Notes: generated by a model not told the origin, from the sequence alone. A stretch of 35,958 bases of DNA from Candidatus Hodarchaeota archaeon (GCA_048887225.1 JBHLJY010000024.1:2544-38501), one strand, 5' to 3'; numbered from the stretch's first letter, positions 12,987 through 35,958 are shown. Numbers and translations: made by a program.

Positions 12987-13178
12987 ATGGCTAAAAATGA
13001 CCAAAATTTACCTGACATTAAGATACGATTGAATATAAAAGCAGAAAAAGATAACCCAATTTATGATTCCTTTTTAACTATTAAAGAATATTTGGGACAG
13101 AGACTTAATACTGAAGTTATAAGATTCTGTATTATGAGGGCCTATGAAAAACTAAAAGAAGAAGGTAAAATTGATTAA
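12987..13178 (+). CDS. RHH-like regulator (divergent paralog; candidate repressor)
   Basis: KIRLNIK..GQRLNTEVIRFCI. Confidence 0.75.
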   Translation: MAKNDQNLPDIKIRLNIKAEKDNPIYDSFLTIKEYLGQRLNTEVIRFCIMRAYEKLKEEGKID

Positions 13179-16378: not shown

Positions 16379-16514
16379 AAATTAAATTTACTTTTCTAAT
16401 TATTTATTCTTTAAGATTAATTATTTTTTCGGTTCCAGGATAAATAAAACTTTAATTTGAAATTTGAATTTTATAAAAAGAAAAAAAATATTAATTATTT
16501 TTTTTAATATAAAA

Positions 16515-16938: not shown

Positions 16939-17094
16939 ATGAAAATACTTGGAAGAAATACAGAATCGCATCTTTCTAGAAAAATAGATGTAGATAGTAA
17001 AGAAAAAATTAATGACAGAAAAGATACCAAGAAGCAAATTAATAAGATATATAAAGAAGATAAGAATATCTTTAAAAAATTATCAGAACTCTAA
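16939..17094 (+). CDS. Putative Doc antitoxin (51 aa, not in ORF track)
   Basis: MKILGRN...KIYKEDKNIFKKLSEL; C-terminal helix resembles Doc-neutralising tails; immediately downstream of doc. Confidence 0.6.
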   Translation: MKILGRNTESHLSRKIDVDSKEKINDRKDTKKQINKIYKEDKNIFKKLSEL

Positions 17095-17173: not shown

Positions 17174-17320
17174 TTATTTTGTTCCTCCATGGATTTTCTG
17201 TAGTTTCTTTGCTTTATAATCTCCTTTTTTCTGATGGTGATGTTTATAACAATGTGTCATCCAGGGTTCTATTTTTCTATTACATCCTGGTTGGGCACAG
17301 GTTTTTGATTTTTTTGCCAA
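17174..17320 (-). CDS. Basic C-x4-C..C-x2-H Zn-finger microprotein (48 aa, not in ORF track)
   Basis: MAKKSKTCAQPGCNRKIEPWMTHCYKHHH...; GGAGGTGA RBS before TTG. Confidence 0.7.
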   Translation of the reverse strand: MAKKSKTCAQPGCNRKIEPWMTHCYKHHHQKKGDYKAKKLQKIHGGTK

Positions 17321-17359
17321 AATTTTCACCTCCAATTTTTTGATTTTAATTTTTTAATT

Positions 17360-19099
17360 TTAAATTGAAAACATTTTATCAATAACAATGACTACGAGAG
17401 CAGCATAAAATTCCCTGGTGATCATATAATTAGGAATCCACATAATCCAGGATTGCCGTTCCTCATTATGTCTTATTAATGAGCTTAAACTATAGAACCG
17501 TTTAAATCCAGAATAATCATAAAAAAAGACTTTTGACACCCCAAAATGGCGACATACATCAAGATCCTTCTTATACTGTTTATTTTGAATATAAGATGTG
17601 TATTTGAACGCTTTTTTAAAGGTCCCGATGAATATATATCTACGATTCCGTTTGACATTTACATCAGAGCTATAGATCTCATAGGATACTTCTTGGAAAA
17701 ACGTGGATAATGGAACCAGATTTCTTTCTGCTTCTGATTTCTCTAAATAAGCAGGTTCGTAATCTGTGGTATAATCATATTTACTCGTATCTCTGATTAA
17801 ATAATCCCAAACAGTTGGAACATTCATTGTTCTATAATTCATTGACACAGAAAAATCCCAATCTAAATCGAGAGAATAAATTGTATTTGATAGTTTGTTG
17901 TAATCATCATCTCCGTCTATTTGATCAAACATAGTTTTTAATTTAATTATGCCAATTTTTTTCTCGTCAATATGAATATCCTCTATCATATCGGATAGAG
18001 ATGATTCTAGTTTCTGTAATCGAGTATCAGACGGCATTTGATTTATTAAATACTCGCCTTTTTCAACCGTATCTTTGTTGTCTAAATCAGTATAATAACT
18101 TTTAGGAATTTCTGCGTCAACCAGAAAACCCCGCATATTATCATATCCATAATAAAGATTATTTAAAATCAACCAGGACCTAATGGTTTTGAAAATGTCA
18201 TGAAACTCATTGGCATTATCTGTGGTGAGATAGAATCCATCCCTTCCACCACCTAATACTATGTATGTAATAATTGAATGGTTTAATAAATATTCAATTC
18301 TCCGTGCTTTTTTTACTCCAAAATCATCTCCATCAATATAATGCTCTCTTAGTACAACGGCAAATCCTACATCATGGTCTCGACATAACCCAAGTGTCTC
18401 CTCATCTCTCGGAAGTTCACCTGTAGAGGCCCAAAAGATTAATTCTGGACTATTTGTTGCCTCTATTTTCACATAAGTAGGAACAGCAAATATCGTTATC
18501 GTGCTAAATAACATTATTCCTACCAGAGAATATATGATCAGATTATTTTTTAGGAAAAAATAAGCGTTTGGTTTTCTATAATCAAGATTATAATATGAAT
18601 TCTTAACAGCTTCATAGGAGCATTCAAATAGGAGAAACAATACCACTTTTGTATAAAAAAAAGGTTCACCATAACCAATTACAAGCAATGCAATTGACGC
18701 ACTTATACTTATCAAATTTACGATAAAGGTATTTTTTACAATATGCAGTCGAGATAACAGAAGTCCGATCAGGAATAACCCTAAAAAAATAATCTTTGTA
18801 ATAAAATATTCTATAGTTGAATGTTGAATAAGAGCAAAAAAAATGAAACAAAATCCTGAAATAAGACAGATTAGTGCTGAAAATAGAAACATAACTCTCC
18901 CTGAACATAAAATAATATAGGAAATCCAAAAGAAAAGAAAAAGAGAAAAAATAAATTTTCCTACAAAATACCACCATCCAACGATGGGATAAATTATTGT
19001 AAGCAATTGTAAATCAGAAGACATAATAACAATAAATAAATATATCAGAATAATTGAAATTGCTACTTTACTCACAACAATGTTTTTCTTTAATGACAT
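17360..19099 (-). CDS. Multi-TM protein with large soluble domain, possibly glycoside-hydrolase-like TIM barrel
   Basis: About 6-7 N-terminal TM; alternating beta/alpha region with GFLVDAE; hydrophobic C-terminus. Confidence 0.55.
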   Translation of the reverse strand: MSLKKNIVVSKVAISIILIYLFIVIMSSDLQLLTIIYPIVGWWYFVGKFIFSLFLFFWISYIILCSGRVMFLFSALICLISGFCFIFFALIQHSTIEYFITKIIFLGLFLIGLLLSRLHIVKNTFIVNLISISASIALLVIGYGEPFFYTKVVLFLLFECSYEAVKNSYYNLDYRKPNAYFFLKNNLIIYSLVGIMLFSTITIFAVPTYVKIEATNSPELIFWASTGELPRDEETLGLCRDHDVGFAVVLREHYIDGDDFGVKKARRIEYLLNHSIITYIVLGGGRDGFYLTTDNANEFHDIFKTIRSWLILNNLYYGYDNMRGFLVDAEIPKSYYTDLDNKDTVEKGEYLINQMPSDTRLQKLESSLSDMIEDIHIDEKKIGIIKLKTMFDQIDGDDDYNKLSNTIYSLDLDWDFSVSMNYRTMNVPTVWDYLIRDTSKYDYTTDYEPAYLEKSEAERNLVPLSTFFQEVSYEIYSSDVNVKRNRRYIFIGTFKKAFKYTSYIQNKQYKKDLDVCRHFGVSKVFFYDYSGFKRFYSLSSLIRHNEERQSWIMWIPNYMITREFYAALVVIVIDKMFSI

Positions 19100-19114
19100 C
19101 TTCCTTTCTTCCCT

Positions 19115-19312
19115 TTATTTTATTTTTTTTACAATTTTATCCTTCGTTTTCAAACCAACTTTTGCTTGAGGGGGTAATTTCTTTCCCGCTTTTTTCCTTA
19201 GTGGTTTTTCATATTTCTCGGATTTCTTTATTCCTTTCTTTATATCTGCTTTTGTTGGCTTTTTCGAAGGTTTTTTTCTACAATTTTTCTTTTTGGCCAT
19301 AATTTTATTCAC
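19115..19312 (-). CDS. Lys-rich basic protein (histone-H1/protamine-like); true start may be ATG 19300
   Basis: MAKKKNCRKKPSKKPTK...; very high Lys content. Confidence 0.65.
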   Translation of the reverse strand: MNKIMAKKKNCRKKPSKKPTKADIKKGIKKSEKYEKPLRKKAGKKLPPQAKVGLKTKDKIVKKIK

Positions 19313-19326
19313 TTCCTATTATTTCT

Positions 19327-19414
19327 TTAAGTCAGCCGACTTATAACCTAAATTATAAGTCAGCTTATCTAAAATTACCGTGAATTTTTCTTATTTTTAG
19401 GTCAGCTAACTTAA
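19327..19414 (-). promoter_or_regulatory. Intergenic quasi-palindrome x3 / alternative RNA helices
   Basis: GTCAGC core at 19331, 19359, 19401; 14-bp and 13-bp competing stems. Confidence 0.6.
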
Positions 19415-19416
19415 GA

Positions 19417-19650
19417 TTATTTCTTTTTTTTAGGTCCTGGTCTTTTCTTTTGCTTCCTTTCTTGTTTTCTTGTGCCTTTTTTAGCAATTTCCTTATTAGT
19501 CCTTCGTGGATTTCTTGTATGAGCTTGGTTCCTATGAGCCTTTGATCTACCCATATTATATCCCCCAACTGGATGCGCTTTTCTTCGATGAGGTTTGCTT
19601 GTTTTTACAGGTATTTTTTTTGGTCGACCTTTTTTTTTCTTTTTTGCCAT
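19417..19650 (-). CDS. Extremely basic protein with AT-hook-like motif; candidate nucleoprotein
   Basis: KKKKGRPKK at the N-terminus, KKRPGPKKKK at the C-terminus. Confidence 0.75.
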   Translation of the reverse strand: MAKKKKKGRPKKIPVKTSKPHRRKAHPVGGYNMGRSKAHRNQAHTRNPRRTNKEIAKKGTRKQERKQKKRPGPKKKK

Positions 19651-19651
19651 T

Positions 19652-20911
19652 TTAAATCATTCCTTTTTCTTTTTTATATGATACTTGTGATTCTTTATCA
19701 CTCTCTTCTAATTCTCTACTAACGAAGAGTTCATTTTTATTAATATAGAAAATCTTGCCACATAATTTACACCATACTCTTGGGTTATTAAAGATAATAT
19801 GCAAGTCTCTAGGCTGATATTTTTGATGATTACCACAATTGGGACATGTAACATTAAAAATACCATTTATGCCTAAAATTTTTATCTTATATGTTTCTTT
19901 TTCTTTGATATGTTTATAATTTCTTTTTGCTCTCCAAATTATTTCAGATAAATCATTCCTGGTAACATAGATTATTTCCCCTTTTTTCTCTAATTCATCC
20001 AATTTATACAATATTTCTCCTTTTAATTCGTTAATTGTATAGTCGTCTAATTGAAAGGATGATAAATAATCTACAAGCAGATTTCTCTGATCTCTATATC
20101 TATCAATTCCTTCAATAATCTTAAATTTAAAGGGTAAATCCTTCCACTTAGGATCCGTTGAATCAAATTCAATGAAACACCCTTTTTTTTGCTCATCTAC
20201 GATAAATGCATGTTTTCTAGCTTCATAATCAGTTAATCGTTTAGATCTAACTTGCCAATCTTTTAATTCGTCTTGAATTTCTTCGTTTATTTCATACATT
20301 TTACAGGCTAATTCATCATGAGATTTTAAGATAGTAAACATACTGAAATCTTTTCTTATTCGTAAATCTACAGCTCTTAAACTCTGCACCAATAGAGCAC
20401 ATATTACAATCCCCCCTAAATTCCCTTTTCTTCTTATACATTCATCCTGTAGTTCATGTGCTATTTTATAAAATATTTGTGTTAATTTTTTATTACCAAA
20501 AGGATCCCGTGCATCCAAATAATTAATTTGATCATCTAAGACAACAAAATGCACAGGTGTTTCAGAATGTGCTATTGCATATACCAATCCATAAAGGTCA
20601 TCAGCAATAAAAAAATCAATGTCATCTAGCCAAACTTCATAAGCTTTATTGGCTAGATATTTAGTAGTTAATGATGTTTTTCCAATTCGAATGATTCCAT
20701 CCACTATAAAAAGTTTAAATTCGAAATGCCCTGATGGTAATTCTTGATCTTCAGGGATACAAAACGATTCCTCTTTAAGATATTTATCAATATCTCGAAT
20801 TTCTATTTCTGTATTCCCGTATTTTTTCAAAAAGACACTATTATTTAATATATCTCCATAGAGAATAATGCCACAAACAATTGATAAGATAATTATATAT
20901 AATTGGATCAT
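19652..20911 (-). CDS. Membrane-anchored P-loop ATPase (Zot/pI- or FtsK-HerA-like) with C-terminal Zn ribbon
   Basis: N-terminal TM; GIIRIGKT; VVLDD; LLVQSLRAVDLRIR; CPNC..CKLC. Confidence 0.75.
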   Translation of the reverse strand: MIQLYIIILSIVCGIILYGDILNNSVFLKKYGNTEIEIRDIDKYLKEESFCIPEDQELPSGHFEFKLFIVDGIIRIGKTSLTTKYLANKAYEVWLDDIDFFIADDLYGLVYAIAHSETPVHFVVLDDQINYLDARDPFGNKKLTQIFYKIAHELQDECIRRKGNLGGIVICALLVQSLRAVDLRIRKDFSMFTILKSHDELACKMYEINEEIQDELKDWQVRSKRLTDYEARKHAFIVDEQKKGCFIEFDSTDPKWKDLPFKFKIIEGIDRYRDQRNLLVDYLSSFQLDDYTINELKGEILYKLDELEKKGEIIYVTRNDLSEIIWRAKRNYKHIKEKETYKIKILGINGIFNVTCPNCGNHQKYQPRDLHIIFNNPRVWCKLCGKIFYINKNELFVSRELEESDKESQVSYKKEKGMI

Positions 20912-21630
20912 TCTGAACTCAACCCTCTTTCTTTTTTTAGTCTTTTTTGTTCTTCATAAAATCTATTGGCCTTTTCTTTATTTCTTTTTTGTAAATTCTT
21001 TTCCCGTTTAATCTTATTTGCTCTCTCAAACAATTCCTTTAATTGTTGTGTGATTGGATTTCCCATATCAAATCCATGCGACATCTGTGGTGTGGCCTGC
21101 AGTTCCTTAAGCAGTTTTATTATGTCCTCAAGAGCCCTATTCTGATCATCACGCTTTTCCAATGTATCAAGATATAGTGTGCTTATTTTACTAAAGAATT
21201 CTCTAATTTGTTCTTTTACATTATTATATTCCCGCAATTCTGTTTTATATTCAATTTCTTCTCCTTTCTCATCTAATGTTTCAATTTCTGTTAATTTTTG
21301 ATATTTTAAATGTCCTAATTCTGATTCTATCTCATCTTTAAGTGTATCCAACTCCAGGTCCAAGAAAAGCTTATTTTGTTCTATTAAGCAATAGATCTCA
21401 TCTAGTTTTTCCTCAAGATTATTAGTTTCTCTAAATCTTTTTCTAATCTTAGCTAAAGTATAATCTGAATTAGATTCATCACTCATTTGCTTGATAATAT
21501 TAAAAAAATAAATGATAACTGTCTTTGTATCCTCTAACTCATTGATATAAACTAAAATATCATTCAAATCAATTTTTTTGAGTTCTTCGAGACTCATTTT
21601 AGTTATATCTATGGTGTTTTTATCCTTCAT
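20908..21630 (-). CDS. Coiled-coil protein
   Basis: E/K/L-rich heptads; ATGA overlap with the ATPase. Confidence 0.75.
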   Translation of the reverse strand: MKDKNTIDITKMSLEELKKIDLNDILVYINELEDTKTVIIYFFNIIKQMSDESNSDYTLAKIRKRFRETNNLEEKLDEIYCLIEQNKLFLDLELDTLKDEIESELGHLKYQKLTEIETLDEKGEEIEYKTELREYNNVKEQIREFFSKISTLYLDTLEKRDDQNRALEDIIKLLKELQATPQMSHGFDMGNPITQQLKELFERANKIKREKNLQKRNKEKANRFYEEQKRLKKERGLSSE

Positions 21631-21635
21631 GTTAC

Positions 21636-23534
21636 TTAATCCTTGGTAAAATCTGGTTCCAATTCCTCCTCCTGAGTAGTTAATAATAATGGATTGTTAA
21701 TTTTTTTAATAGAATAAACTAAAGCTTCATTTCTCGCTTTCTCTATTTCATATTTCGTTTTATAATCTCCACTATCTTTGATGTCTTTGGATTTATGATA
21801 GTTATCAAAAGCGTATTGAGCTGCTTTTTGCACATTTCCACATTCTTTATATCCCATTAGAGCCAAAGAGACAAGATCAACAATAGTATTTTCGTCCACA
21901 ATTGTTTTTTGATAGATTTTAACAATTTTATCATTGATAATTGAATTAATATGTCTATTTATGTCATCTAACTGATCTCGTGCGGTTACATATTTCTTAT
22001 CTAATTTAATGTATTCTTCACGAGATTTCGCTTTCTTTAATTCATGAATGGATTTGATATTATCAATATGATTTTGCCTCATGATTGCTTCCTCTAAATC
22101 ATGTTCAGGAATAATATCAACTTTAGGATTGGATACCTTTATATCACTGACTTTTTCATCCTTTCTTAAATCTTCAACATAAAATAATGACTTATCTTTT
22201 TCATCTTTAGGCTTCTTTGTTTCTCCTTCAGTAGTTGTTTCTAAAATGTTATAATTCACATCACAGATATAATTAATTTTATCATACATAACTTGGTGCC
22301 GTATTACTGGAATTTCAGTAATTCTCACATAAAGTTGATTTCCATCCTTATCTTTTACAGGTTCTTTCTTATAGACGATCTGACCTTTTTTCTCTCCTCT
22401 CTTATAAGTCTTTTTAACCTCATTTGTATCTTTCAATACTTTTTTCTTCTCATATTTCACATAACTATGTAATTTATTTGCGACAGAAACACCAGGAATA
22501 AGACAGGAAAATGTACGATAAATTACAAACATCACTCTATTTGCAAATGTTTTTACCCTCTCTTGTTCATATAAGATAACATTCTCTGGCACTTCAACAC
22601 GGTGATAGATTATTTCAGCATAATAATTGAACAACCCCCAATTCATATAGGTATAAGGTTTCTGAAGAGCATATGGCATAGGAGAATAGGCCTTTTTTAA
22701 TCGTTTCCATTTTTTAAAATATAATTCATACCATCCAGGAATATCTTCACTTGTAACCTCATAGGAAAATCTACCAGCATAAAAATGCTTTCCTCGGACG
22801 TTTTTATAAAACACATATGGCCTGCCAATATATCTATATAAAACGAATGCGGCATAAATACCCCAGAGAAGGATAAAAAACCAATTATCCTTTCCCCAAT
22901 TATTAAATGCGATCATACCAGAAAAGATTGATGGGGCATCTGGAGCAACTTCCCCCTCATCATCGTCATCATCGTCATCATCACCTGTAGGAGCATCGGT
23001 TATGGGTGGATTAGTTGAGGGTATCTGGGGAGCTACACTTAACACAAAAATATAATCTCTAATTAAAATCCAAAAATTATTAGGAATGATATCCATTGGC
23101 AAAGAAAATTCAACTGTGTTATTTACAAAAATCTTTTCTATGAACGGATTATTGATACCTGGATAAAGATCAAATGAATAACTCTGATTATTTATAATGG
23201 CCTTTATTGTAATCATGTCAGTTAAAACAAAATCGTATGGAGCTGAAAGATATATATAGTGATAATCTCGATTATTAGCATAATAAAGCTGATATCCCTC
23301 TCCTGTGAAAATCTGATCATAACCCTCGTCTTTTAACCCATCTATAATTATATTATTAGCATAGGAAGATGTCGTTAGTTGATTTGGATTTGGATTCTCC
23401 TTCTCACTTGAACTCGAATTCTTTTGTGGAATATTTCTAATTCCCATACTCAGGACCATAAAAAAGATTAATCCAAAAATAAACATCCCAAATACAAATT
23501 TACTTTTGCTCAATTGGTTTCTTTCCTCCAGCAA
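21636..23534 (-). CDS. Two-TM protein with external beta domain, acidic linker and large cytoplasmic region
   Basis: N-terminal TM; IIIDG motif (DOMON/CBM9-like, tentative); poly-Asp; second TM; C-terminal coiled coil. Confidence 0.7.
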   Translation of the reverse strand: MLEERNQLSKSKFVFGMFIFGLIFFMVLSMGIRNIPQKNSSSSEKENPNPNQLTTSSYANNIIIDGLKDEGYDQIFTGEGYQLYYANNRDYHYIYLSAPYDFVLTDMITIKAIINNQSYSFDLYPGINNPFIEKIFVNNTVEFSLPMDIIPNNFWILIRDYIFVLSVAPQIPSTNPPITDAPTGDDDDDDDDEGEVAPDAPSIFSGMIAFNNWGKDNWFFILLWGIYAAFVLYRYIGRPYVFYKNVRGKHFYAGRFSYEVTSEDIPGWYELYFKKWKRLKKAYSPMPYALQKPYTYMNWGLFNYYAEIIYHRVEVPENVILYEQERVKTFANRVMFVIYRTFSCLIPGVSVANKLHSYVKYEKKKVLKDTNEVKKTYKRGEKKGQIVYKKEPVKDKDGNQLYVRITEIPVIRHQVMYDKINYICDVNYNILETTTEGETKKPKDEKDKSLFYVEDLRKDEKVSDIKVSNPKVDIIPEHDLEEAIMRQNHIDNIKSIHELKKAKSREEYIKLDKKYVTARDQLDDINRHINSIINDKIVKIYQKTIVDENTIVDLVSLALMGYKECGNVQKAAQYAFDNYHKSKDIKDSGDYKTKYEIEKARNEALVYSIKKINNPLLLTTQEEELEPDFTKD

Positions 23535-24057
23535 ATGTAATTATGATAACTATTACAACAAAAAATAGTGCTAAAACCCATACAACAAAAAATACTATAA
23601 AATTCAGTGTATCAGGAGCAAAAAGATACCACAAATATCCGATTAGCAAATAGATTAACATTACTGTAATATAGCTGAAAACCTTATACTCCAGTACTTT
23701 AAAATTAGAAATAATTCTCCCTAATATAAGTAGACTAATTGGTGCACATATAGTCATAAGAAAAGTCCCCCAGTCTAATATATCTAACGTAGTTAAATTT
23801 GTAAAAATTCCTAAACTATATAATGTATACCCGAAATAATAAACAATCAATAAAACCCTTAGAGTTTTACAGATTTTTGATTCAGGAATTGACAGGATTT
23901 TAGCAAGAGTTAATACTCCTATTATCCCAACGGTTAATGTACGTAAAAATGAACTACAATACCAAAATACGATTGGAACAATAAAATCCATTGGAGCATA
24001 AATAAAATTCAAGATCCCTACTAAAACCTCTACAAGATTAGCCATTTTCATAATCAC
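23500..24057 (-). CDS. Integral membrane protein (about 5-6 TM)
   Basis: Almost entirely hydrophobic 185 aa. Confidence 0.75.
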   Translation of the reverse strand: MIMKMANLVEVLVGILNFIYAPMDFIVPIVFWYCSSFLRTLTVGIIGVLTLAKILSIPESKICKTLRVLLIVYYFGYTLYSLGIFTNLTTLDILDWGTFLMTICAPISLLILGRIISNFKVLEYKVFSYITVMLIYLLIGYLWYLFAPDTLNFIVFFVVWVLALFFVVIVIIITFAGGKKPIEQK

Positions 24058-27000: not shown

Positions 27001-30000
27001 TTTAGAATTGGATTATATCTAAAATATTGGTAAATTTCTGTCACTTCTCTCATTCGTAAATTATCCCCTTCATTATATTTTGGATGAGAAACTTCAGAAG
27101 GAGCATCAGTATAAGCATAATAAGTTCCTGAACCTCCAGTAGTCTGGACAAGTAAAGCAGAAACCCCAACAATTTGATTCTGAACCATATTCATATTATC
27201 AATCATTTTAATATTGTCTATATATACATCATAAGTATTATCCACTCTCCAAACTGCTTTAATATGATACCATGTATTACTTACAACTGATTGAATTTCA
27301 TGCTCAGTAAAACCACTATCAAGATAATATAATTTTGAATTACTTATCCTAAGAAAAAAATTATATTTTGTTGGTTCGGCAAAGATCCATTGTTGGCTTT
27401 TTGAAACATCACTACTTCCAATATAAAGTTCTACTGTTCCACTGGTTCCTGGTGTATCAAAAGAATGAACAATATAAGGAGTCATTCCTACAACATTATT
27501 AAGTCTAAGAACTTTATTATGATCTTGCCAATTTACTATAATTACTTCTGCCCCATAGAGTTCTGATGAGTCAACCCAAGAAGGATTAGTTTCTCCAAGA
27601 GATTCCCAATTCAGATTATCTGGAAAATTATCATAATAAGATGTATTTAACAAACATTTAAAGAAAATGGTATAATTGAGGTTTGAATTTAACTCTAAAA
27701 GTCCATTTGTAATATTAAACATAACTGTAAAATTTGGAACATTTAAAGAATCAAATTCAAAATCGAGAGAAATCTTATGCCACGCCTCGTCTTTAATTAA
27801 TGTGTAACTGTTTGAATCATAATCAAACTGAGCAAATTCACTATATTTCGTATAATTGGAATATCTATACTGAAATTCAATTGTAACATTATATAATTTC
27901 TGATAACTACTATATCCATCATACCGATCTAAAAAGGTAAAATCAATCTCCTTTGTAATTGTACTATAGATTTCTCCACTCGTTTTTGTCCAATTTACCA
28001 GAACACTCAATTTATCGATATACAATTCAAAATCAGTTGCATTATAGCCATACCATTTTAATCTTATTGTATTACTCCCATCATAATGACTCGAATTCAA
28101 TGTAAAATAAAGATTATAAAAATTATCTTTATTAGTAGAACTATTTACTAAATTCCATACAGAATTAACCCAATTCCATATCGAAAAACTAATTTCAATT
28201 GATTCATTTGTTTTTTGAGAATAATATAACTGAATAAAATCAATTGTATCATTTGTTTGCATCCCTGTGGTTGCAAAGGTAAATTCAGAGGTAAAATTCA
28301 ACTCTAAATCAGATTTTTTAGAATAAATTAAGATGGCATCAGCAGTTCTATCAACCACAAACCAGTGAGTTGAATTCGCAGAAATACCCATTGGATACTT
28401 CCCATGACCAATATAATAACTTACTCCAGTATAATCCCAATTAGAATCATAGATAAAAACAGAAAGATGTTCATAACCAACCATAAAGAAGTGTGTTCCA
28501 TTAAAATAAACTCCAATACCATTTCCATCTTGTCCAGAAACATCATAACTAATCCCTGTATAATCAAAAGTAGAATTATATACAAAAATCTTATTATTAG
28601 CTCCTCCTTTAAAAAAAAAGTGTGTTCCATTCCATGCCAGTCCATGAAGAGTCCCATCTTGTCCAGAAACATCATGACTAACTCCTGTATAATCCCAATC
28701 AGAATCATAGACAAAAAATCTGTCTTCTGTATTTCCTCCTACAAAAAAATGTGTTCCATTAAAGCAAATAGCAAATGGAGTCCCTGTTTCACTCGAAATA
28801 TCGTGACTAGTTACATATGTCATCCTTTCATCAAATTCACGAATAGCATTAAATTGATTCCCTGTTATAAAAATATGAGTTCCATTTGTGGTCATTCCAA
28901 GAGGATCTCCATCACCAGCACTAACACTAATTCCAGTATAATTCCATTCTATAAAACCAGCATTGAAAATAGAATAATCTGAATCAATATCCCATAATGA
29001 ACCATTTTGAGTTTGTGTTCCATTTACAAAACTAAAACTGGTATTTGATGGAACACTCGAATCCGAACCAACATTTAATATAGAAGTTAAATTCACTCCA
29101 GTATTATCAAATGAACTTGAAATATATTCTGAATTATAAGTATGAACCCAACTTGTCCAATCTTCGTAATTTAACTCTTGAGGAAATTTATTTTGCATAT
29201 ATAAATAATCTGAAACAGTATAAGTGCTATTATAACCATCTAGACCACCATAATTGTGAGACATATAAGTATTTAAAGTATTGAAATATTCTGAATAGAC
29301 ATTTTCATATCCAGAACCATCAGAATCTTCAAGAAAACTTCCATTCTGATTTGTTTGATAATACCTCTGACTCCAACTCACATCTTCATTACCATAAGAA
29401 CCAGAACCAGAACTATATCCAGATTGATCTTGACTATAATCTGGTGTGTAATCTGGTAAATACTCCAGATTACTAAATGTAAGATTCGCATGTTCAGGAT
29501 TCCATCCAGAAGGTAAAATAATAGAATATAAATGATTTCCGTTTATATTATAATAAGTTAGTATATTTGAAATGCCACTCAAATAAATATTTGAAGTACC
29601 AGAACCAAGAGAATTATATAAATAATGTAATGGAAGATAAATTTCTTCAATAAGGATAATCTCTAAAAGAAAGATATTTCCTGTATCTTGCGAAACAGGG
29701 GGAGATAGAGAACAAGGATTAGAATTTCCCTTGTCAAGATTGTTTAAATAGATTTTTTTAATATTCAAATTAGAATCAAAAACCATTTGTTCTATATAAA
29801 TTAGATGATCTGATTCAAGTTTGAATCTTTTTCTTAAATAAGTTTTAGAAATTATTTCTAAATCAAATGTAAAAGTAAAATCCACAGTAATATTTAACCT
29901 AAAATAGACTGCCTCTGTGGTGGTAATTAATAAAGATGGAGGATATGTACTTAAAAGAACAAATCCAGAATTGTATGTAGAATCTATACACTCTTCCCCA

Positions 30001-31415
30001 TTAATTGTTAAAGCAACCTCAGTTGCTACTCTCCATGTATTAGAAGAATATAATATAACTAAAGTCATATTAATCTGTACATTTGGAAGTGAAAGATCAA
30101 AAATGAGAGTTAAATTCTGTTCTGGAACTATTATATCATTGATATAATCATATTGAGAGAACATACTTGAATCAAAATAAAATATAGCATCTCCACTTGT
30201 TTCAGATGTATTTAAATTAGAAATACTCGAATCATATAATAATGTAAAATTTTCATAATAATCAACACCTAATTTTTGATAAGTAAAATTACTTACATAA
30301 ACATCAAATAAAGATCCTTGATGATATCTATAAACTTTATGTTCATAAATATCTGGTATATAGAAACTAAAACCATCCCAAGCTATACCAACTGGTTCAC
30401 TGCTTTCATCTCCACTAAGTTCATAAAGATTATAAGAAGTATATTCAGTAAAATCTGAAGGATATTTATAAACATATGCATCACCATCTGTAACATAAAA
30501 ATATTCTCCATCCCACTCTATTGCATATGGAAAATCATTCCCACCTAATGCTCCAACATCATAAGATGCAATTTCACTTCTAAAATCAGAAGGATATTTA
30601 TTAATTTCATCTATATTCTGATCTATTACATAAAAATATTCTCCATCATAACAAATTCCATAATAAGTCCCTGGTCCACTAATACTCCCAATATTATATG
30701 TAATATAACTGCTAAAATCAGAATTATATCTAAAAACATAGTCATAAATATCATCTGTAATATAAAAATATCCTCCAACCCAAACTATTCCAAGTGGTGT
30801 GTTTGTAGCTGGAATACTATAATAAGTTATATAACTGCTAAAATCTGAAGGATATTTATAAACTCTCTTATATTCTCTATCCATTAAATAAAAATATTTT
30901 CCATCCCAAGTTATATCATAAAGTTCAGCTGGTGTGCCAACACTATAAGATTCTATAAGTCCACTAAAACAAGAATAATTTCTTGTAAAAGTAATATTTA
31001 CTTGGATTGTTGTATCAAATTGTGCAGAAAGTGTATAACCATTTATTCCATCTGTTGTATTTAATGTAAAATTACCTGTCAACCCATCAGTTTTATTATA
31101 GGAAAATGAATCTGTACTATTATAAATTGGAAGTTGAATATTTGAGACATCAATTCGTGTAGAATCATGAGAAAAAGGCCCAATATCTAATTCTGGTTCA
31201 TCCCAAAATGTATATGTTCCTGCTTGCATTAAAGTTGAATGGATCTCAGTTGAATCTGTTTTTAAAGTGCAATGTATTGTGGTTTCTATATCTTCATCAT
31301 TTTGTTTACTAGCCAAAGAATTGTTTACAAGAAACAATAAAGTAGATATAAAAATAGAAGATATGAGAAGAGCTAAAATAAAACCTTTTTTTATACTTCT
31401 TTTTTTTACTTTCAT
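24054..31415 (-). CDS. Giant surface glycoprotein/adhesin: two 5-repeat beta-propeller regions, LamG-like and Ig-like regions, C-terminal TM
   Basis: Signal/TM N-terminus; G(I/L)xWDG.YFY repeats and NGTHFF repeats; many NxS/T sequons; C-terminal TM plus Lys-rich tail. Confidence 0.8.
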   Translation of the reverse strand: MKVKKRSIKKGFILALLISSIFISTLLFLVNNSLASKQNDEDIETTIHCTLKTDSTEIHSTLMQAGTYTFWDEPELDIGPFSHDSTRIDVSNIQLPIYNSTDSFSYNKTDGLTGNFTLNTTDGINGYTLSAQFDTTIQVNITFTRNYSCFSGLIESYSVGTPAELYDITWDGKYFYLMDREYKRVYKYPSDFSSYITYYSIPATNTPLGIVWVGGYFYITDDIYDYVFRYNSDFSSYITYNIGSISGPGTYYGICYDGEYFYVIDQNIDEINKYPSDFRSEIASYDVGALGGNDFPYAIEWDGEYFYVTDGDAYVYKYPSDFTEYTSYNLYELSGDESSEPVGIAWDGFSFYIPDIYEHKVYRYHQGSLFDVYVSNFTYQKLGVDYYENFTLLYDSSISNLNTSETSGDAIFYFDSSMFSQYDYINDIIVPEQNLTLIFDLSLPNVQINMTLVILYSSNTWRVATEVALTINGEECIDSTYNSGFVLLSTYPPSLLITTTEAVYFRLNITVDFTFTFDLEIISKTYLRKRFKLESDHLIYIEQMVFDSNLNIKKIYLNNLDKGNSNPCSLSPPVSQDTGNIFLLEIILIEEIYLPLHYLYNSLGSGTSNIYLSGISNILTYYNINGNHLYSIILPSGWNPEHANLTFSNLEYLPDYTPDYSQDQSGYSSGSGSYGNEDVSWSQRYYQTNQNGSFLEDSDGSGYENVYSEYFNTLNTYMSHNYGGLDGYNSTYTVSDYLYMQNKFPQELNYEDWTSWVHTYNSEYISSSFDNTGVNLTSILNVGSDSSVPSNTSFSFVNGTQTQNGSLWDIDSDYSIFNAGFIEWNYTGISVSAGDGDPLGMTTNGTHIFITGNQFNAIREFDERMTYVTSHDISSETGTPFAICFNGTHFFVGGNTEDRFFVYDSDWDYTGVSHDVSGQDGTLHGLAWNGTHFFFKGGANNKIFVYNSTFDYTGISYDVSGQDGNGIGVYFNGTHFFMVGYEHLSVFIYDSNWDYTGVSYYIGHGKYPMGISANSTHWFVVDRTADAILIYSKKSDLELNFTSEFTFATTGMQTNDTIDFIQLYYSQKTNESIEISFSIWNWVNSVWNLVNSSTNKDNFYNLYFTLNSSHYDGSNTIRLKWYGYNATDFELYIDKLSVLVNWTKTSGEIYSTITKEIDFTFLDRYDGYSSYQKLYNVTIEFQYRYSNYTKYSEFAQFDYDSNSYTLIKDEAWHKISLDFEFDSLNVPNFTVMFNITNGLLELNSNLNYTIFFKCLLNTSYYDNFPDNLNWESLGETNPSWVDSSELYGAEVIIVNWQDHNKVLRLNNVVGMTPYIVHSFDTPGTSGTVELYIGSSDVSKSQQWIFAEPTKYNFFLRISNSKLYYLDSGFTEHEIQSVVSNTWYHIKAVWRVDNTYDVYIDNIKMIDNMNMVQNQIVGVSALLVQTTGGSGTYYAYTDAPSEVSHPKYNEGDNLRMREVTEIYQYFRYNPILNLDSLQEMNGNWILNFTFSFDPSTDAGIYNFFNSINHSLLHFNISIEHESGWSSVVYNYNTTQSDIYFTLNITSVLNGLGKNRFKGFYIEFYLAGNPSNFTLDNLTLYDFDSDFFKVQAIWIDTLVISHQEVSVYWKASDRYIDHIEIHQKFDDTIYLLHNGTLLNNTLQSFEFSNVTCGFYELNLTFYDNYSNWEKWTCNFTIWNRISISTGYKNPCLIGETNTVFVHLDTEYSIMDVYYDNSTDYIHQYSNSSYPIYEYEFNFTVNYNVETVYNISILVIGEYNDSFWCNITGLSFIERTTILDINNLYSSYYQDEQMNITFVLRDLYNNPLQNKLLNYTIEDPGGNYIVNGSGITNSYGNITYNLPFDISYTIGFYHLNVSFNGTKDYTSGWKLQSFQVRPILRAVNSTDFSLTVNNYPVVNNFIQINWTNNFTIANNNTATFDMSIVLKLNYTQAISYTGYLTHTNTFGATSDILSIKFDNATIFNYPSNFTEFYFDNDKSSNYAISGSRFTISDLVGDTYYNNNDFSILFTHMDTSQIDRIQLTDEPRTDINTVQFREYLTPNRTFSYWYFHNSLNISTVSLYHNRTSTTVPYSSFTIENNNYYFEKSCLSEDFFTASTSYWIDWDNYVNFEILTDNGTYCEIKITYQAPIDINNVTIVLDLKSQGLYAENWDNNATQSDLTYILELPHINFTTSQQTIILKGTSSAPVISFSFVINEDGFKISDEEWKIRETAEEWRSIKKANWEDLNEYIIGYLEIPKYSEAFRVNIESDWELDGIHYGNEYYDIQTNGYFECAGFGTGITTAFLKFKTNPLSNLKRIESSGEVVYKIYAKYRLDNIDFIFYIEETDYYNKQNMIKELEDEVDCDKIVEYYTVEDRIYYMIVNMDLDEGKNEIVINYEIERMANYAWLFLIIAIVLIGFGVIYITIRYTDNKIKDFINLDKIVKYFFWIKKSKREQLLKKNRYKPKKKIKKIKKG
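28330..28920 (-). repeat. ~129-bp coding repeats (propeller 2 blades)
   Basis: ccatcttgtccagaaacatcat recurs at 129-bp spacing; tgtgttccatt x3. Confidence 0.8.
30330..30930 (-). repeat. ~42-44-aa coding repeats (propeller 1 blades)
   Basis: YKYPSDF / DGEYFYV recurrences. Confidence 0.8.
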
Positions 31416-31933
31416 TTTTCTAAATTGATCACCCCTTTTTTCACATAATTATGAAAATCTAAATTAAATAAAATAAATGAAAATACGAAAATCGTAAAAA
31501 ATGTTAATATAAATAATTCAGAATTTAAATCTGGAGTATGTTTTAATAATAAATATCCATCCCCACATTCGATAATAGGACTTATAGCCCAACTCAATTC
31601 TTCAACAAAGAGCATCACCCAAGAAGCAAAATAACTCCCAAGAATCCTTTTCTTTTTTCCATAATATAAAGAAATTAAAATACATGGTAAATCAAAAAGA
31701 CTCCCACTAACAGCAAAAATTCTATATGCATTTGCATCATATACGATTGGATCAGAAATGGCTGTCGCCACTCCTAGAGGATGAATAAACAATTCCACAT
31801 TTTTAAATCCTAATAATACTGCAGAGAGATAATGCCCAAATTCATGTATAAATGTAAAAAATACTATTTGGATAAAAAAGATTAATCCATTAACTAGAAT
31901 TAATTCAATTTTTCTCTTTGTCTGTTTTTTCAT
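31412..31933 (-). CDS. M50-like intramembrane zinc metalloprotease
   Basis: IHEFGH (HExxH) at the end of TM1; AVSGS; GDG third-ligand motif. Confidence 0.8.
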   Translation of the reverse strand: MKKQTKRKIELILVNGLIFFIQIVFFTFIHEFGHYLSAVLLGFKNVELFIHPLGVATAISDPIVYDANAYRIFAVSGSLFDLPCILISLYYGKKKRILGSYFASWVMLFVEELSWAISPIIECGDGYLLLKHTPDLNSELFILTFFTIFVFSFILFNLDFHNYVKKGVINLEK

Positions 31934-31937
31934 TTTT

Positions 31938-33731
31938 CTACACCCCGAGAGTAGCTAAAACGAACATTACAGTGAAAATATTATACCCTGCATGGGCCCA
32001 GATACTTGATTGATAACCTGAACTCATATGAAGTAATATGAAAAAAAGGCCTACACAAAATAGAATACCAAATAATCCACAAACATAAAATTCTACAAAT
32101 GAGATCCCTGTATTATAATTTAACATAGGGAAATGTAATAACGAAAATCCAAATGCAGGTAAAAAAACACCAAATGCAATAAATAAAATTGCGGGATTCC
32201 TTCTACCTAACACAGCTTTCTTCTGGAGATATATCACAGGAACTTTATTTTTTATTCTTTGTTCTTTTTTCTCCAAATAATCAACCGTATATTGGATTAA
32301 AGCAAATAATGTTTTGTTCTTTTGAACATCTGGTGCTTTTAGGATTTTTTTCCATGTTTCTTTTTGACCTTCGATAGAAGCTAATTTTCTCTGTCTATCC
32401 GATTCATATTCTATTTTAACTTTTTTATTGACTTTTTGTAAAATAATACCAAAGACCAATCCAGGACAAAAAACGAAAAAGAATAAAGATTCTGCTGGAG
32501 CCACAAATAAAACCTGAATTGCCACATAAGATATATCCCGATGCAATTCATCGTTAGAATATGCATTTAAGGTCTGTTGTGTAAAGAATGACATAATTAA
32601 TCTTAATGTTATAACTCCTAGAAGTGTCCCAAATAGAGTATTTTTGGCAGTTGACCGTTCATAAAAGATCTTCTCGTTTGTGGTTAATGATAATACACAT
32701 GCAACAATAATAACAGAATATATTCCAAAATAACCTAAATAAATATAATCGGTGGCTGGATCATGTCCAAAATTCCTTCCATAGCTTAAAAATAAAAACC
32801 ATCCGAAAAAAAGAATGAATGCTAGGATTACGTACATTCCTAAATCCACATCAGAAAAGTGTCTTTTTTCCTTCTTTTCCTTATCCTTTCCAAAGAGGTC
32901 ACCAATTTTTTTTACAAGATAATTTTCCATCTTTGGTTTAGTCATAAAAATAGCAAAAATTAGACATGCCCATGTTATAACAGTAGGAAGCATATCATGA
33001 ATCGCATAAATTCGCTCTGTATAGGTCATTGAATTTAATTCTTGATAAGAAGAATCTAATGAAAGATTAATATCATTTGATTCAAGAGAAGGGAGAGTTG
33101 GTATTTCGCCAAATTCATAATTACCCCCTGGATCTAAAGCTTTAAATAGGTCTTCTAATCCGCTTAATATTTCATTAATTATATCTAAAAGTTTTCTAAT
33201 TAGATTGTAAATCATTGAAGGAATTGAAATTATGAAATTAATTAAAGAAATATAAAACTTTCCTATATCTGCAATTGTTCCTCCTGTTGGATCAGCACCA
33301 ATTACTACTAATACAAATAATACAATAAATAGTGCACCCATTAGCAATAATCCTTTTACAAATAACTTAGCAGCAGAGCTGACCTTTCCCATAATTATTG
33401 CAATTATAATCATGATTGTAAAAAGGAAAGGAATACCATAGTAGACGAAAACGACTACTATTTTCATTCCAGTGTTTACATAGCCCTGCATTGCGTTTGC
33501 ATCAAATGTTTGAGATGCATCAAGTGTAAACATCTGGTGTGGAATAAAGATAAAAGGAAATAAAATAACCAAAAATAATTTTAAATTAAAATTATACTCC
33601 TCAGAATTAAGTGATATACATAAAAAAATAGCAGGGAAAAAAAAAGCAAACACTTTAAATCCTAAAGGCAAGAATATTAAACCAATTAACCCGAAAAGAA
33701 ATCCGAGATAAGCATAATAACAGTTCCTCAT
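31938..33731 (-). CDS. Polytopic membrane protein with C-terminal CPBP (Rce1/Abi)-like protease domain
   Basis: VAPAESLFF (degenerate EExxxR), FSLLH, WAHAGYN. Confidence 0.7.
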   Translation of the reverse strand: MRNCYYAYLGFLFGLIGLIFLPLGFKVFAFFFPAIFLCISLNSEEYNFNLKLFLVILFPFIFIPHQMFTLDASQTFDANAMQGYVNTGMKIVVVFVYYGIPFLFTIMIIIAIIMGKVSSAAKLFVKGLLLMGALFIVLFVLVVIGADPTGGTIADIGKFYISLINFIISIPSMIYNLIRKLLDIINEILSGLEDLFKALDPGGNYEFGEIPTLPSLESNDINLSLDSSYQELNSMTYTERIYAIHDMLPTVITWACLIFAIFMTKPKMENYLVKKIGDLFGKDKEKKEKRHFSDVDLGMYVILAFILFFGWFLFLSYGRNFGHDPATDYIYLGYFGIYSVIIVACVLSLTTNEKIFYERSTAKNTLFGTLLGVITLRLIMSFFTQQTLNAYSNDELHRDISYVAIQVLFVAPAESLFFFVFCPGLVFGIILQKVNKKVKIEYESDRQRKLASIEGQKETWKKILKAPDVQKNKTLFALIQYTVDYLEKKEQRIKNKVPVIYLQKKAVLGRRNPAILFIAFGVFLPAFGFSLLHFPMLNYNTGISFVEFYVCGLFGILFCVGLFFILLHMSSGYQSSIWAHAGYNIFTVMFVLATLGV

Positions 33732-33773
33732 AAATTACCCTTTTAAAGTGTTTTAGATTTAGAATTTTAAAGA

Positions 33774-35078
33774 TCACTTTCGCTTTGTTTTTGGAGAAAT
33801 CCTAATGAACCTAGATAAAACCAACAACCCTCCAAGTACACCCGCAAATATTACAGCAAATAAAATGATTGCTGTTGCACTAGTTTCTTTGGTTGTATCG
33901 TCAGAATCAGAATGGACACTAGGTGCAGGTATTATTACTGGTTCAGGACCATCACTAAATATAGGGTAATTATCAACTGCTCCAGCAGTACCGCCAATAC
34001 TATAAGGGGTATCGCCAATGGAATCATCATTTTCATCAACACCGCTATAATCACTCCAGATGTTCCCGATGGTTCCATAATCCCACGCATTGGGTAGAGT
34101 AGAATTATCAACAGCATTCACAGCATCAGGCTCAGCGCCATTATCAGCATCATTCTCAAAAGTATTAAAATAAATTGTATTGTTTACACTATCTCCATTA
34201 TCCTCTGAAATCAAAACTCCTACAACAGTGTTATTTTTAAATTCTCCACCAGTTATAATACAGTCATCAGAATCATTTAAGACCAACCCTCTAAGGTTAA
34301 AGTTGGCTTGGATTGTCATATTATTAGAGTCTGAATCTTCTAAATATAATCCATCTAAGTTTGTACTAAAATAGCTCCCTGAGATCCCATTATAAGTACA
34401 ATTCGCTAAGTATCCACCATCATCTCCATTCACACTAAAATTACAGGTCCCGATAGTATTTACAACACTATTTATCATGTGTAAACCATCATCTCCATTC
34501 CCTGTTGCTGTAACCCCTGTTAGAGTTGTTATATTAACATTCTCCATTATGATCCCATCTCTACCATTATTAGAGAAATAACAAGTATTAACGGTACCAT
34601 TTTCTACATTATAAAGAGATAAACCATCGCCAGTAGCATTCACATTAGTAACGGTTACATTGTGTAGAGTAAAAAAGACACCAGAATTTAGAATTTGTAA
34701 TCCTGCTCCAGTATTATTAACTGAAATTGTCATATTCTCAAGCAAATAAGGATCTCCTTCCGTACCTGAACCACTGCACCATTCTTCTGCAGAAGCTGTA
34801 GTCCAATTATAATTCGATACACCATCGCCAGTAGCATTTATAACTATGGCTGATTCGAAAGACCATGATCCTGCAGATTTAGGTTGTTTGTTTTCAATAG
34901 TATTAGGTGTTTGAAAAGCAGAATTTACACTCTTATCTTGAATTTGAGTAAAAGTAGAAAAAATAGAGAGAGCTAAAAGAATTACTCCAAAAGTAACTAA
35001 AAGACTTGTCTTTCTTTTTGAAAAATTCATTTTCATCTTCATCTCCTTTATTTTTACATTAACATTCCTGTATACCAA
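33774..35078 (-). CDS. NosD/CASH right-handed beta-helix surface protein with C-terminal TM; true start probably 35030-35042
   Basis: WCSGSGTEGDPY, repeated N..DG..L, GNIWSDY.G.D...D.IGDTPY. Confidence 0.85.
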   Translation of the reverse strand: MVYRNVNVKIKEMKMKMNFSKRKTSLLVTFGVILLALSIFSTFTQIQDKSVNSAFQTPNTIENKQPKSAGSWSFESAIVINATGDGVSNYNWTTASAEEWCSGSGTEGDPYLLENMTISVNNTGAGLQILNSGVFFTLHNVTVTNVNATGDGLSLYNVENGTVNTCYFSNNGRDGIIMENVNITTLTGVTATGNGDDGLHMINSVVNTIGTCNFSVNGDDGGYLANCTYNGISGSYFSTNLDGLYLEDSDSNNMTIQANFNLRGLVLNDSDDCIITGGEFKNNTVVGVLISEDNGDSVNNTIYFNTFENDADNGAEPDAVNAVDNSTLPNAWDYGTIGNIWSDYSGVDENDDSIGDTPYSIGGTAGAVDNYPIFSDGPEPVIIPAPSVHSDSDDTTKETSATAIILFAVIFAGVLGGLLVLSRFIRISPKTKRK

Positions 35079-35545
35079 CCTAAGGCACCAAAACCGAGCA
35101 AAGTACCAGAGAAAATAACTGATCTGAAGAATTCCTGTCCCGCAACTGCATTATAGAGTAGAACAATGATTATGATTATAAAAATAATTGGTATAATCAA
35201 TATTTTTATTGCAATAGAAATATCTATAAAAGAACTTGCATCAAATATCATAAAAGTTCCAACAGTGACAGCAAAACTAAGATATAATCCAACAGCTAAA
35301 GCAATTGCGAGTATAATTCCGCTTTTATTTGGAGCTAAAATAAGAGCAGGTAAACAGATAAGAATCCAGGAGACAATGATATATAATCCACGTTCATGTC
35401 GAGGTGCAGGACTATTTTCAAAGTTTAGCCGTCCATTTATAACTAAGATATATAAGTATAATCCAAGAAAGATGATTATACCACTTACAATTCCAAGGGA
35501 TAGGTTTTTTAGGTTGATCTCAAATTTAAAAGATTTTTCTGACAA
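35054..35545 (-). CDS. Integral membrane protein (about 5 TM), first gene of the membrane operon
   Basis: Hydrophobic 163 aa. Confidence 0.7.
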   Translation of the reverse strand: MSEKSFKFEINLKNLSLGIVSGIIIFLGLYLYILVINGRLNFENSPAPRHERGLYIIVSWILICLPALILAPNKSGIILAIALAVGLYLSFAVTVGTFMIFDASSFIDISIAIKILIIPIIFIIIIIVLLYNAVAGQEFFRSVIFSGTLLGFGALGWYTGMLM

Positions 35546-35958
35546 TTCTATTTCACTTTGGTTAGATTTTTAAATTATTTTTAAATATTAATTGGGAATC
35601 GATGCTTATAAACTTGTGTGCAAATGTTTTGCAATGTATTACACCATTGATCTATTAAAATATTTTCTTAATGAAAATTATTAAGACTAAGAATATTCTG
35701 TAAAGAATTATAACCAAAATCAAGAAATATATGATTAGATTAAAGATTTCAGAATTTTTATTAAAATTTTTATTTTATGGAAAAAATTAGATCTTAGAGG
35801 AAAATAAAGATTTGCATTTTAAAACATGCCTATAAAAAAATTAATTTTTTTCCTTGTGATACTTTTCTTTACACTTGCTCAATATTATTCCTCTAATATT
35901 GATGACTTGTAATAAAATGTAATACATTTAAATACTTTTAATTCATATAATGATCAAC
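35546..35958. promoter_or_regulatory. AT-rich upstream region with palindrome AAATGTA-A-TACATTT (35915-35929) and related AATGTATTACA (35633-35643)
   Basis: Non-coding, upstream of the 18-kb operon. Confidence 0.35.

Follow-up and report, generated by a model that had tools for sequence, protein, structure and literature searches.

The DNA considered here, a stretch of 35,958 nucleotides (hereafter the window; G000:C24:2544-38501), comes from a 3.27-Mb metagenome-assembled genome (MAG) that is 98% complete and has a G+C content near 0.30. It belongs to a mobile element of an Asgard archaeon, and nearly all of its genes lie on the minus strand. There, at 17174-35545, stands a membrane operon of 13 co-oriented open reading frames (ORFs). 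A preliminary description, made from the sequence alone, had presented these genes as tightly packed, and their coordinates confirm it: neighbouring genes overlap by 4-35 nt or are separated by gaps of 1-42 nt, the sole exception being a 104-nt gap between two genes for basic proteins. Where that description counted nine membrane-anchored products, a hydropathy scan gives hydrophobic segments in 10 of the 13. Pfam recognizes within the operon only a beta-helix (in a 434-aa product) and, below threshold, an M50 segment (in a 173-aa product); PHROGs add nothing.

What do the 13 genes encode? The first (35054-35545) specifies a 163-aa protein with four hydrophobic helices, as judged by hydropathy. 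It matches neither a Pfam nor a PHROG family and has no paralog in the host genome; its position makes it a candidate for a virion membrane protein or major structural protein. The second product (434 aa; 33774-35078) is a predicted surface protein with a signal/anchor segment, a right-handed beta-helix (Pfam Beta_helix, E 1.4e-12; NosD, E 1.2e-11), 16 sequons and a C-terminal anchor. It has many host paralogs. The next two products had been put forward as proteases. One is a 597-aa polytopic membrane protein (31938-33731; about 11 hydrophobic segments in the hydropathy scan), CPBP-like by motifs only: of the CPBP motifs EExxxR, FxxxH and HxxxN, the second and third are present and the first is reduced to AE, and no Pfam family matches it even at E<=10. 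The other is a small membrane protein of 173 aa (31412-31933), whose gene overlaps the start of the adhesin gene by 4 nt. With its motifs HEFGH and GDGYLLL it is a putative M50B-like metalloprotease, although both Pfam scores fall below the cutoff (Peptidase_M50, E 0.0056; M50B, E 0.018). A host paralog (L026:1069-1668) shares HExxH and GDxYxLL. The M50 reading is thus weak, with some backing from a paralog that has both motifs, and the CPBP reading has found no support in Pfam. We have seen this putative protease pair in the window element only.

The five genes that follow form the core of the operon. The largest (24054-31415) encodes a predicted spike or adhesin of 2453 aa, with a signal/anchor at the N-terminus and, at the C-terminus, an anchor with a basic tail. 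The protein has repeat propellers, beta-sandwich domains and 79 N-x-S/T sequons; the preliminary description had likewise seen an adhesin here. Then come a 185-aa polytopic membrane protein (23500-24057) and a 632-aa bitopic protein (21636-23534). The latter is laid out as a signal/anchor, an outer beta-rich domain of about 150 aa, an acidic linker, a membrane helix and a charged cytoplasmic domain of about 390 aa; it has no match in PDB, Pfam, PHROG or Atlas. The fourth product is an acidic, helical, coiled-coil-like protein of 240 aa (20908-21630), and its gene is translationally coupled, through an ATGA overlap, to that of the fifth, a 419-aa ATPase (19652-20911) assigned to the FtsK-HerA superfamily by its Walker motifs and fold model.

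Beyond the ATPase gene lie the genes for three small basic proteins, a number that the preliminary description had right, and one for a larger membrane protein. The first small protein (77 aa; 19417-19650) is highly basic, with an isoelectric point of 12.0 and 43% Lys plus Arg. Its gene starts 1 nt past the ATPase stop, and an 88% identical homolog exists on a related contig (L003). The second (65 aa; 19115-19312) is Lys-rich, again with 43% Lys plus Arg. The third, encoded by the last gene of the operon (53 aa; 17174-17335), carries a zinc-finger-like Cys/His cluster, gives weak matches to HNH and zinc families of PHROG, and has a partial homolog, 81% identical, at the end of the L003 contig. 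Between the second and the third stands the gene for a 579-aa protein (17360-19099) with six membrane helices and an outer domain of about 370 aa. The outer domain has a host paralog (L019:4741-6354, in G000:C8; 30% identity over 371 aa, E 6e-53). Because this chromosomal paralog adjoins a gene for an NAD-dependent sugar epimerase/dehydratase, a glycan-related surface function seems likely for the 579-aa protein. Sequence-profile searches of the PDB returned nothing for the ATPase core or for the 632-, 240- and 579-aa families.

Is this arrangement peculiar to the window? A word-indexed search of 5.8 billion proteins returned three homologs of the ATPase, and when 1.84 billion cluster representatives were searched exhaustively with a profile, 72 came up, 24 of them at E<=1e-30. 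The synteny for which the preliminary description had called is there: on at least 11 other distinct contigs we find a block consisting of a giant surface protein, a polytopic protein of about 180-205 aa, a protein of about 440-630 aa, a helical protein of about 240-317 aa and the ATPase. The order is the same in L003, L007, L016, L018, L024, L027, L028, L037 and L038, and is partly kept in L013. L003 belongs to a Promethearchaeota MAG (73-89% identity). L005, L007 and L015-L018 are short contigs (35-57% identity), L024 measures 13.6 kb, L027 is a 34-kb Promethearchaeota contig, and L028 and L029 are contigs of 122 and 27 kb. Replication genes accompany the block on several of them: L037 (9 kb) carries an MCM gene, L038 (41 kb) a PCNA gene, and L013 (20.4 kb) an integrase, an MCM with 29% identity to that of the window element, and homologs of its ribbon-helix-helix (RHH) regulators. 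Links between the module and an MCM gene number three in all, those in L013 and L037 included, and an integrase gene is linked in L013; the module travels with replication genes.

Giant homologs lead the module in L003 (73% identity), L016, L024, L027, L028 and L038. The 185-aa family (alignment A5, 7 loci) follows directly after the giant gene in every case, and the 240-aa family (alignment A7, 11 loci) stands immediately upstream of the ATPase in every locus. The 632-aa family (alignment A4, 6 loci) extends down to 21% identity, and the alignments of all three families cohere to about 14-21%. From spike to ATPase, none of the core genes has a paralog elsewhere in the MAG, and the ATPase profile finds a match in just 5 of 400 Asgard genomes and in none of nine congeners. 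Four of the five core genes are new. In L028 a beta-helix gene likewise lies within the module.

What follows the ATPase gene is more variable. In L003, L007, L015, L016 and L017 it is a homolog of the 579-aa protein; in other loci (L024, L013, L021 and L027) one to three basic proteins are found. We considered whether the small basic genes are a universal part of the module and rejected the idea, since in L007 and L016 the 579-aa homolog comes after the ATPase with no small basic gene intervening. Judged by these gene orders, basic partners of the ATPase appear frequent, not universal. Basic proteins in four loci (L024:10774-12111, L013:13926-14825, L021:2612-3097 and L027:11516-12238) share a motif resembling V.V..Y.R.DGTKV..H.R, which occurs three times, in paralogs, in L024 and which the 77-aa protein of the window resembles loosely. 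The motif may represent a DNA-binding hairpin.

What kind of enzyme is the ATPase? It carries Walker A (GKT) and Walker B (VLDD) motifs, and the most conserved columns in the alignment of 59 family members are those of a Q..D..IR stretch, in which the Q is invariant and the R nearly so. An AlphaFold2 model built from this alignment has a pLDDT of 90.7 and a pTM of 0.84. It is the only model from which we draw structural evidence; an earlier one, built from four sequences, reached a pLDDT of 44 and was not used. The predicted fold is that of the FtsK-HerA superfamily (VirB4, STIV2 B204, HerA), with a RecA-like core, Walker A and B motifs and, past the strands that follow these, the conserved Gln and Arg. 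In the PDB, Foldseek returns the genome-packaging NTPase B204 of STIV2 as the top match. In BFVD the matches at the top are an unnamed viral protein, proteins of an uncultured archaeal virus, a mimivirus and a Nitrosopumilus spindle-shaped virus, and many A32-like packaging ATPases; archaeal-virus and A32-like enzymes predominate there. Pfam and PHROGs have no match for the ATPase itself.

Profile comparison brings the relationship closer. By hhalign the family profile scores 90.9% with ORF16 of His1 (E 1.1e-6, 110 columns), in an alignment that reaches from Walker A to a D.R..M..N...Q...R motif, and 83.4% with VP8 of HRPV-1 (E 8.4e-6, 134 columns), whereas the element's own MCM, another P-loop ATPase taken as control, scores 0.8%. 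As far as these profiles tell, the nearest sequence relatives of the enzyme are the ATPases of pleomorphic and spindle-shaped archaeal viruses, and it is at the level of the ATPase that the kinship with pleolipovirus and spindle-virus modules, suggested in the preliminary description, holds. Many family members have C-terminal helix-turn-helix (HTH) domains, as annotated in His1 ORF16 too; the window ATPase ends in a single helical/HTH-like repeat followed by a zinc ribbon. Of the membrane-anchored ATPase that had been described, the Walker and Q..D..IR motifs proved to be conserved in the family; its N-terminal hydrophobic segment is lacking in the three closest homologs, though present in the distant L024. 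We conclude that the enzyme is likely a motor for DNA translocation or morphogenesis.

The C-terminus of the ATPase is modular. A helical unit of about 40 aa (..ELKGEL.YKLDELEK....YVTRNDLSEIIWRAK..) is present in one copy here and in two or three copies in the relatives compared (P0002-P0004 and P0024); in the window protein a CxxC...CxxC zinc ribbon stands in for the further copies.

How does the element reside in its host? Three parts make up the scaffold C24: the 2,443-bp piece L002, a run of 100 N, and the window, whose last 77 nt equal L002:59-135 (100% identity) and whose first 600 nt equal L002:1784-2383 (99.8%). Since L002 overlaps both ends, the window, nearly the whole of the element, closes into a circle of 37,606 bp, to which L002 contributes 1,648 bp that encode a 161-aa RHH- and winged-HTH-like protein and a 341-aa tyrosine integrase. 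The integrase gene (L002:667-1692; phrog_1, E 2.5e-30) lies about 600 bp from a 19-bp core, ATATTATTCCTCTAATATT, which forms attP in the circle (35882-35900) and recurs at L002:59-77 in a junction between host and element. In alignment A6 the flanks change precisely at the borders of this core, and three states can be told apart: the empty attB of three congeners (G167, G168 and G169), in which the core is flanked by host sequence on the left and the right; the integrated junction of L002, with host sequence on the left and element sequence on the right; and attP at the window end, with element sequence on both sides. When L002:1-135 was searched in 135 genomes of the family, positions 1-77 were found in the three congeners at 96-99% identity, the similarity stopping at position 77. 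Positions 1-58 are unlike the window; reversed, they open a conserved gene of the host, MPIIMPSPQTGKEPQIHE..., whose product is a hexapeptide-repeat, gamma-carbonic-anhydrase-like protein. The core spans the ribosome-binding region of this gene and the first two bases of its start codon. A tRNA gene was considered as the target and rejected, since neither ARAGORN nor Rfam detects any RNA gene at this junction or in the congeners; the element enters a protein-coding gene at its 5' end.

Because the same 19-bp core is seen as circle junction, as host junction and in empty sites, we conclude that the element integrates and excises. The three states of the att site show, moreover, that integrated and excised (or concatemeric) forms were both present in the assembled sample; circular forms were among the things that the preliminary description had wished to see checked. 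An integrase gene beside the att site, and an identical core in attP, junction and empty attB, are what a tyrosine-recombinase integrative element displays. A fixed chromosomal locus unlinked to replication modules, which had been named as one threat to the earlier interpretation, is excluded by the sporadic occurrence of the ATPase, the lack of core paralogs and the empty attB sites. The replicative helicase itself, an MCM-family protein of 807 aa (4175-6598, minus strand; Pfam MCM, E 8e-11; phrog_10371, E 2e-16), confirms the MCM of the preliminary description, and shares 23.5% identity with the MCM of the host. The host is of the Promethearchaeota, Loki-type, in keeping with the Asgard origin that had been surmised. 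In tetranucleotide usage the element is close to its host, with r 0.993 as against 0.995-0.998 among host contigs, and the MAG holds no CRISPR array. A single sediment sequencing run, probably the source, holds 99% of the sequence words.

Two further host loci touch on integration. At G000:C3:71408-71479 lies a paralog of the 5' region of the target gene, 85% identical to L002:6-77, which holds most of the att core and is a possible secondary attachment site. At L020:4747-5584 (G000:C34:16746-17583) another RHH protein is encoded, with 31% identity to the 161-aa protein of the element, followed by a 114-aa fragment resembling the N-terminus of the integrase; the neighbours are host genes for FtsZ and an SPFH/Band 7 protein. 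This second locus seems to be what is left of a related element that had integrated.

We have, then, an MCM replicon that integrates into and excises from the genome of a Loki-type Asgard archaeon. What does its membrane operon do? With a probability of roughly 0.55, we read the replicon as a temperate, virus-like mobile element, most likely a capsid-poor virus of a new kind, whose operon is an egress or transfer module of the pleolipovirus/halspivirus type. In such a scheme the host membrane would receive the spike together with the beta-helix protein and several small polytopic proteins, and the 632-aa bitopic and 240-aa helical proteins would recruit the ATPase and dock it at that membrane patch. 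The ATPase would bind element DNA through its C-terminal HTH-like and zinc-ribbon part and would drive this DNA, with the small basic proteins as its coat, into a lipid-containing particle. The particle would bud or be extruded, leaving the cell without lysis, and through the spike it would then attach to a new cell and enter it.

Several results weigh against this reading. Three products of the operon have host paralogs (the beta-helix protein, the M50-like one and, in its outer domain, the 579-aa protein), and the operon may be partly surface cargo. No major structural protein was identified: the hydrophobic candidates of 163 and 185 aa match no PHROG family, nor does a 137-aa protein with two hydrophobic helices (58-471, minus strand), a candidate second small structural protein, which also lacks BLASTP similarity to VP21 of His1. 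Capsid proteins of the VP21 and SSV VP1 kind are usually detected only via sensitive profile or structure comparison. By hhalign, ORF6 of HRPV-1 against the 185-aa family (A5) and ORF7 against the 240-aa family (A7) score a probability below 1%, with single-sequence templates that limit the sensitivity; since these two show no profile similarity, the colinearity of the module with HRPV-1 may be an analogy. Lastly, neither scans of IMG/VR nor tblastn against the phage collection brought up any relatives of the family.

Might the operon be cargo altogether? Its surface and membrane proteins, among them the adhesin, the beta-helix protein, the putative proteases and the glycan-related protein, would then remodel the envelope of the lysogen, for adhesion, exclusion or interaction with partners, and the ATPase would serve partition or regulation. 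The many host paralogs of the beta-helix protein, those of the M50-like protein and of the 579-aa outer domain (the last beside a sugar epimerase gene), and the commonness of giant surface proteins in these genomes all fit such a role, as do the weak STAND/AAA NTPase scores that some ATPase family members with HTH domains obtain. Yet the five-gene core, from spike to ATPase, has no host paralog, remains strictly syntenic across otherwise unlike elements and travels with replication genes, a pattern expected of a morphogenesis module, and the specific relatives of the ATPase are virion-associated ATPases. We regard the cargo explanation as improbable.

The preliminary description had recognized no capsid, terminase, portal or relaxase, and among the ORFs tested none matches such a family in Pfam or PHROG. 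Could a jelly-roll capsid nonetheless be present, too divergent to be recognized by sequence, so that the element would be an icosahedral, membrane-containing virus of the Varidnaviria type, comparable to the skuldviruses, Fylgjavirus or STIV? Many of the BFVD matches of the ATPase are A32-like packaging enzymes, and double-jelly-roll (DJR) viruses of Lokiarchaeia exist (10.64898/2026.02.13.705702). The tested ORFs, on the other hand, include no sequence-family match to a jelly-roll capsid, and the module proteins are nearly all membrane or helical proteins, the only beta-rich part being the membrane-tethered domain of about 150 aa in the 632-aa protein. This explanation seems to us very improbable, more so than cargo.

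A non-viral alternative deserves more weight, though we still consider it rather unlikely. The element would be an integrative plasmid and its operon an apparatus for contact-dependent or vesicle-mediated DNA transfer: the adhesin would bridge donor and recipient, and an FtsK/TraB-like ATPase would pump double-stranded element DNA through the membrane or load it into plasmid vesicles, as reported for pR1SE. The ATPase joins a hydrophobic N-terminus (in the window copy and in L024) to an FtsK-HerA core and ends in an HTH, a make-up like that of FtsK and of TraB of Streptomyces; the fold permits this role equally, and Pfam and PHROG show no capsid protein. There is also a 20.8-kb plasmid of Atabeyarchaeia with RHH proteins, an integrase, seven membrane proteins and a CAAX-like protease, for which a conjugative or secretion-like system has been suggested (PMC11529989). 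Against transfer of this kind, the profile matches of the ATPase are virus morphogenesis ATPases (His1 ORF16, HRPV-1 VP8), and its best Foldseek match in the PDB is a viral packaging NTPase. Moreover, among the ORFs tested, Pfam and PHROG give no match to a VirB4 with its N-terminal domain, to VirB6- or VirB8-like proteins, or to pilin and prepilin peptidase families, and a relaxase is likewise missing. The ATPase core spans only about 250 aa, without the N-terminal domain of VirB4, so that any resemblance to a type IV secretion system is confined to the core and the C-terminal domain of VirB4, at the level of the fold.

The virus-like reading can be carried further. We put forward tentatively, and at somewhat less than even odds, that the element is the founding member of a widespread new family of temperate, lipid-enveloped (pleomorphic or spindle-like) Asgard viruses. 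These would bud by means of a VP8/ORF16-type ATPase on a new bitopic scaffold, would carry as spike a giant glycoprotein, matured by membrane proteases that they encode, and would package their DNA with protamine-like proteins.

How does the element compare with the viruses to which its ATPase points? Temperate pleolipoviruses with integrases exist. The likeness to the Pleolipoviridae lies in a spike with signal peptide and C-terminal anchor, then small and medium proteins, then an ATPase that matches the VP8-type NTPase, and in the absence of a recognized capsid protein and the exchangeability of replication modules among relatives. The sizes run in parallel, from the VP4 spike through ORF5 (57 aa), ORF6 (181) and ORF7 (270) to VP8 in HRPV-1 (FJ685651), and from spike through 57, 192, 450 and 260 aa to ATPase in L027; that the element spike shares the VP4-type layout is judged by topology, not homology. 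The differences are considerable. Pleolipoviruses have haloarchaeal hosts and genomes of 7-17 kb, as against an Asgard host and about 37.6 kb, and the element has a spike about five times larger, an additional bitopic protein of about 450-630 aa, and MCM replication. We identified no VP3-like protein in it, none of its several small polytopic proteins being assignable to VP3.

With the Halspiviridae (His1, AF191796) the element shares an ORF16-type ATPase with a C-terminal HTH, and with spindle-shaped viruses the structural match of the ATPase to a Nitrosopumilus virus protein. From STIV2 B204 (PDB 4KFR-4KFU) the ATPase differs by its added C-terminal helical/HTH-like part and zinc ribbon; the element has a membrane-protein operon and no recognized jelly-roll gene. 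The element recalls the haloarchaeal replicon pR1SE in being an integrating replicon that has no recognized capsid gene and encodes membrane proteins. Described by Erdmann et al. in Halorubrum in 2017, pR1SE is said to place its own membrane proteins in the vesicles that carry it and to be able to integrate into the chromosome; we know of no report of a giant spike or of a link to a VP8-like ATPase in it.

Closer in host are the wyrdviruses, which combine a major capsid protein (MCP), an adhesin, a conserved block of five genes, a pI-like ATPase without membrane anchor and interchangeable replication modules (10.1101/2021.07.29.453957). Compared by description only, they have a similar layout and the same host group, and differ in size (<=20 kb) and in replication, for which they encode pPolB, a rolling-circle endonuclease or no replicase, but not MCM. 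The two-helix, VP21-like capsid protein of about 80 aa that both Halspiviridae and wyrdviruses possess went undetected in the element by PHROG and BLASTP. Circular Asgard mobile genetic elements (MGEs) that lack recognizable capsid genes, and often have an integrase, have been reported and left unassigned (PMC13700489; 10.1101/2021.07.29.453957). Those targeted by CRISPR spacers resemble our element in having RHH regulators, many membrane proteins, no MCP and, in one case, a CAAX-like protease, at sizes of 9-85 kb (PMC13700489; PMC11529989; 10.1101/2021.07.29.453957). In a comparison by description only, these papers do not describe a spike-to-ATPase module, a VP8/ORF16-type link or an att site. 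The cultivated Loki virus FylV1, with its DJR capsid, and the NMV viruses differ from the element (10.64898/2026.02.13.705702; 10.64898/2026.08.12.739948).

The element ties such enigmatic, capsid-less circular elements to a morphogenesis ATPase of the pleolipovirus/halspivirus type. What is new is a conserved five-gene module on many contigs, and an exact att site seen as integrated, as excised and as empty. Known viruses of Asgard archaea are few, and no types other than tailed, icosahedral, spindle-shaped and filamentous ones are known to have been reported. The findings offer practical handles: induction could be detected by PCR or from reads, related orphan contigs could be assigned to hosts, and genetic tools for Loki-type archaea might be derived, for example, from the integrase/att pair and the MCM replicon. 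If particles were confirmed, membrane budding and fusion would be open to study in the archaeal lineage nearest to the eukaryotes.

The rest of the window holds genes of more familiar kinds. A divergent pair of small RHH-type regulators occupies 12634-13178, both with homologs in the related element L013, and a neighbouring 137-aa RHH protein gives an Arc-like PHROG match. A DNA methylase is recognized by Pfam (E 1e-21). The interval from its gene to the membrane operon holds an oppositely oriented gene (16464-16910, plus) for a Doc/Fic-family toxin (Pfam Fic, E 1.6e-8; phrog_577, Doc-like toxin, E 4e-17). A partner of the Phd type was not recognized; the next ORF is one of 51 aa at 16939-17094. 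Adjoining the MCM gene is that of a 253-aa protein (6612-7373, minus strand) with a weak resemblance to radical-SAM proteins (Pfam E 4e-4, below cutoff; phrog_13321, E 3e-10).

At the beginning of the window, the gene for the 137-aa two-helix protein lies inside a unit of 583 bp bounded by direct repeats of about 40 bp (CAGGATAAAAAA..AATTGGTCCTG[A/G]AGATT). The piece L002 terminates (1760-2443) with this same unit beginning anew past the second repeat, which suggests either a tandem-duplication variant or a repeat-induced branch of the assembly.

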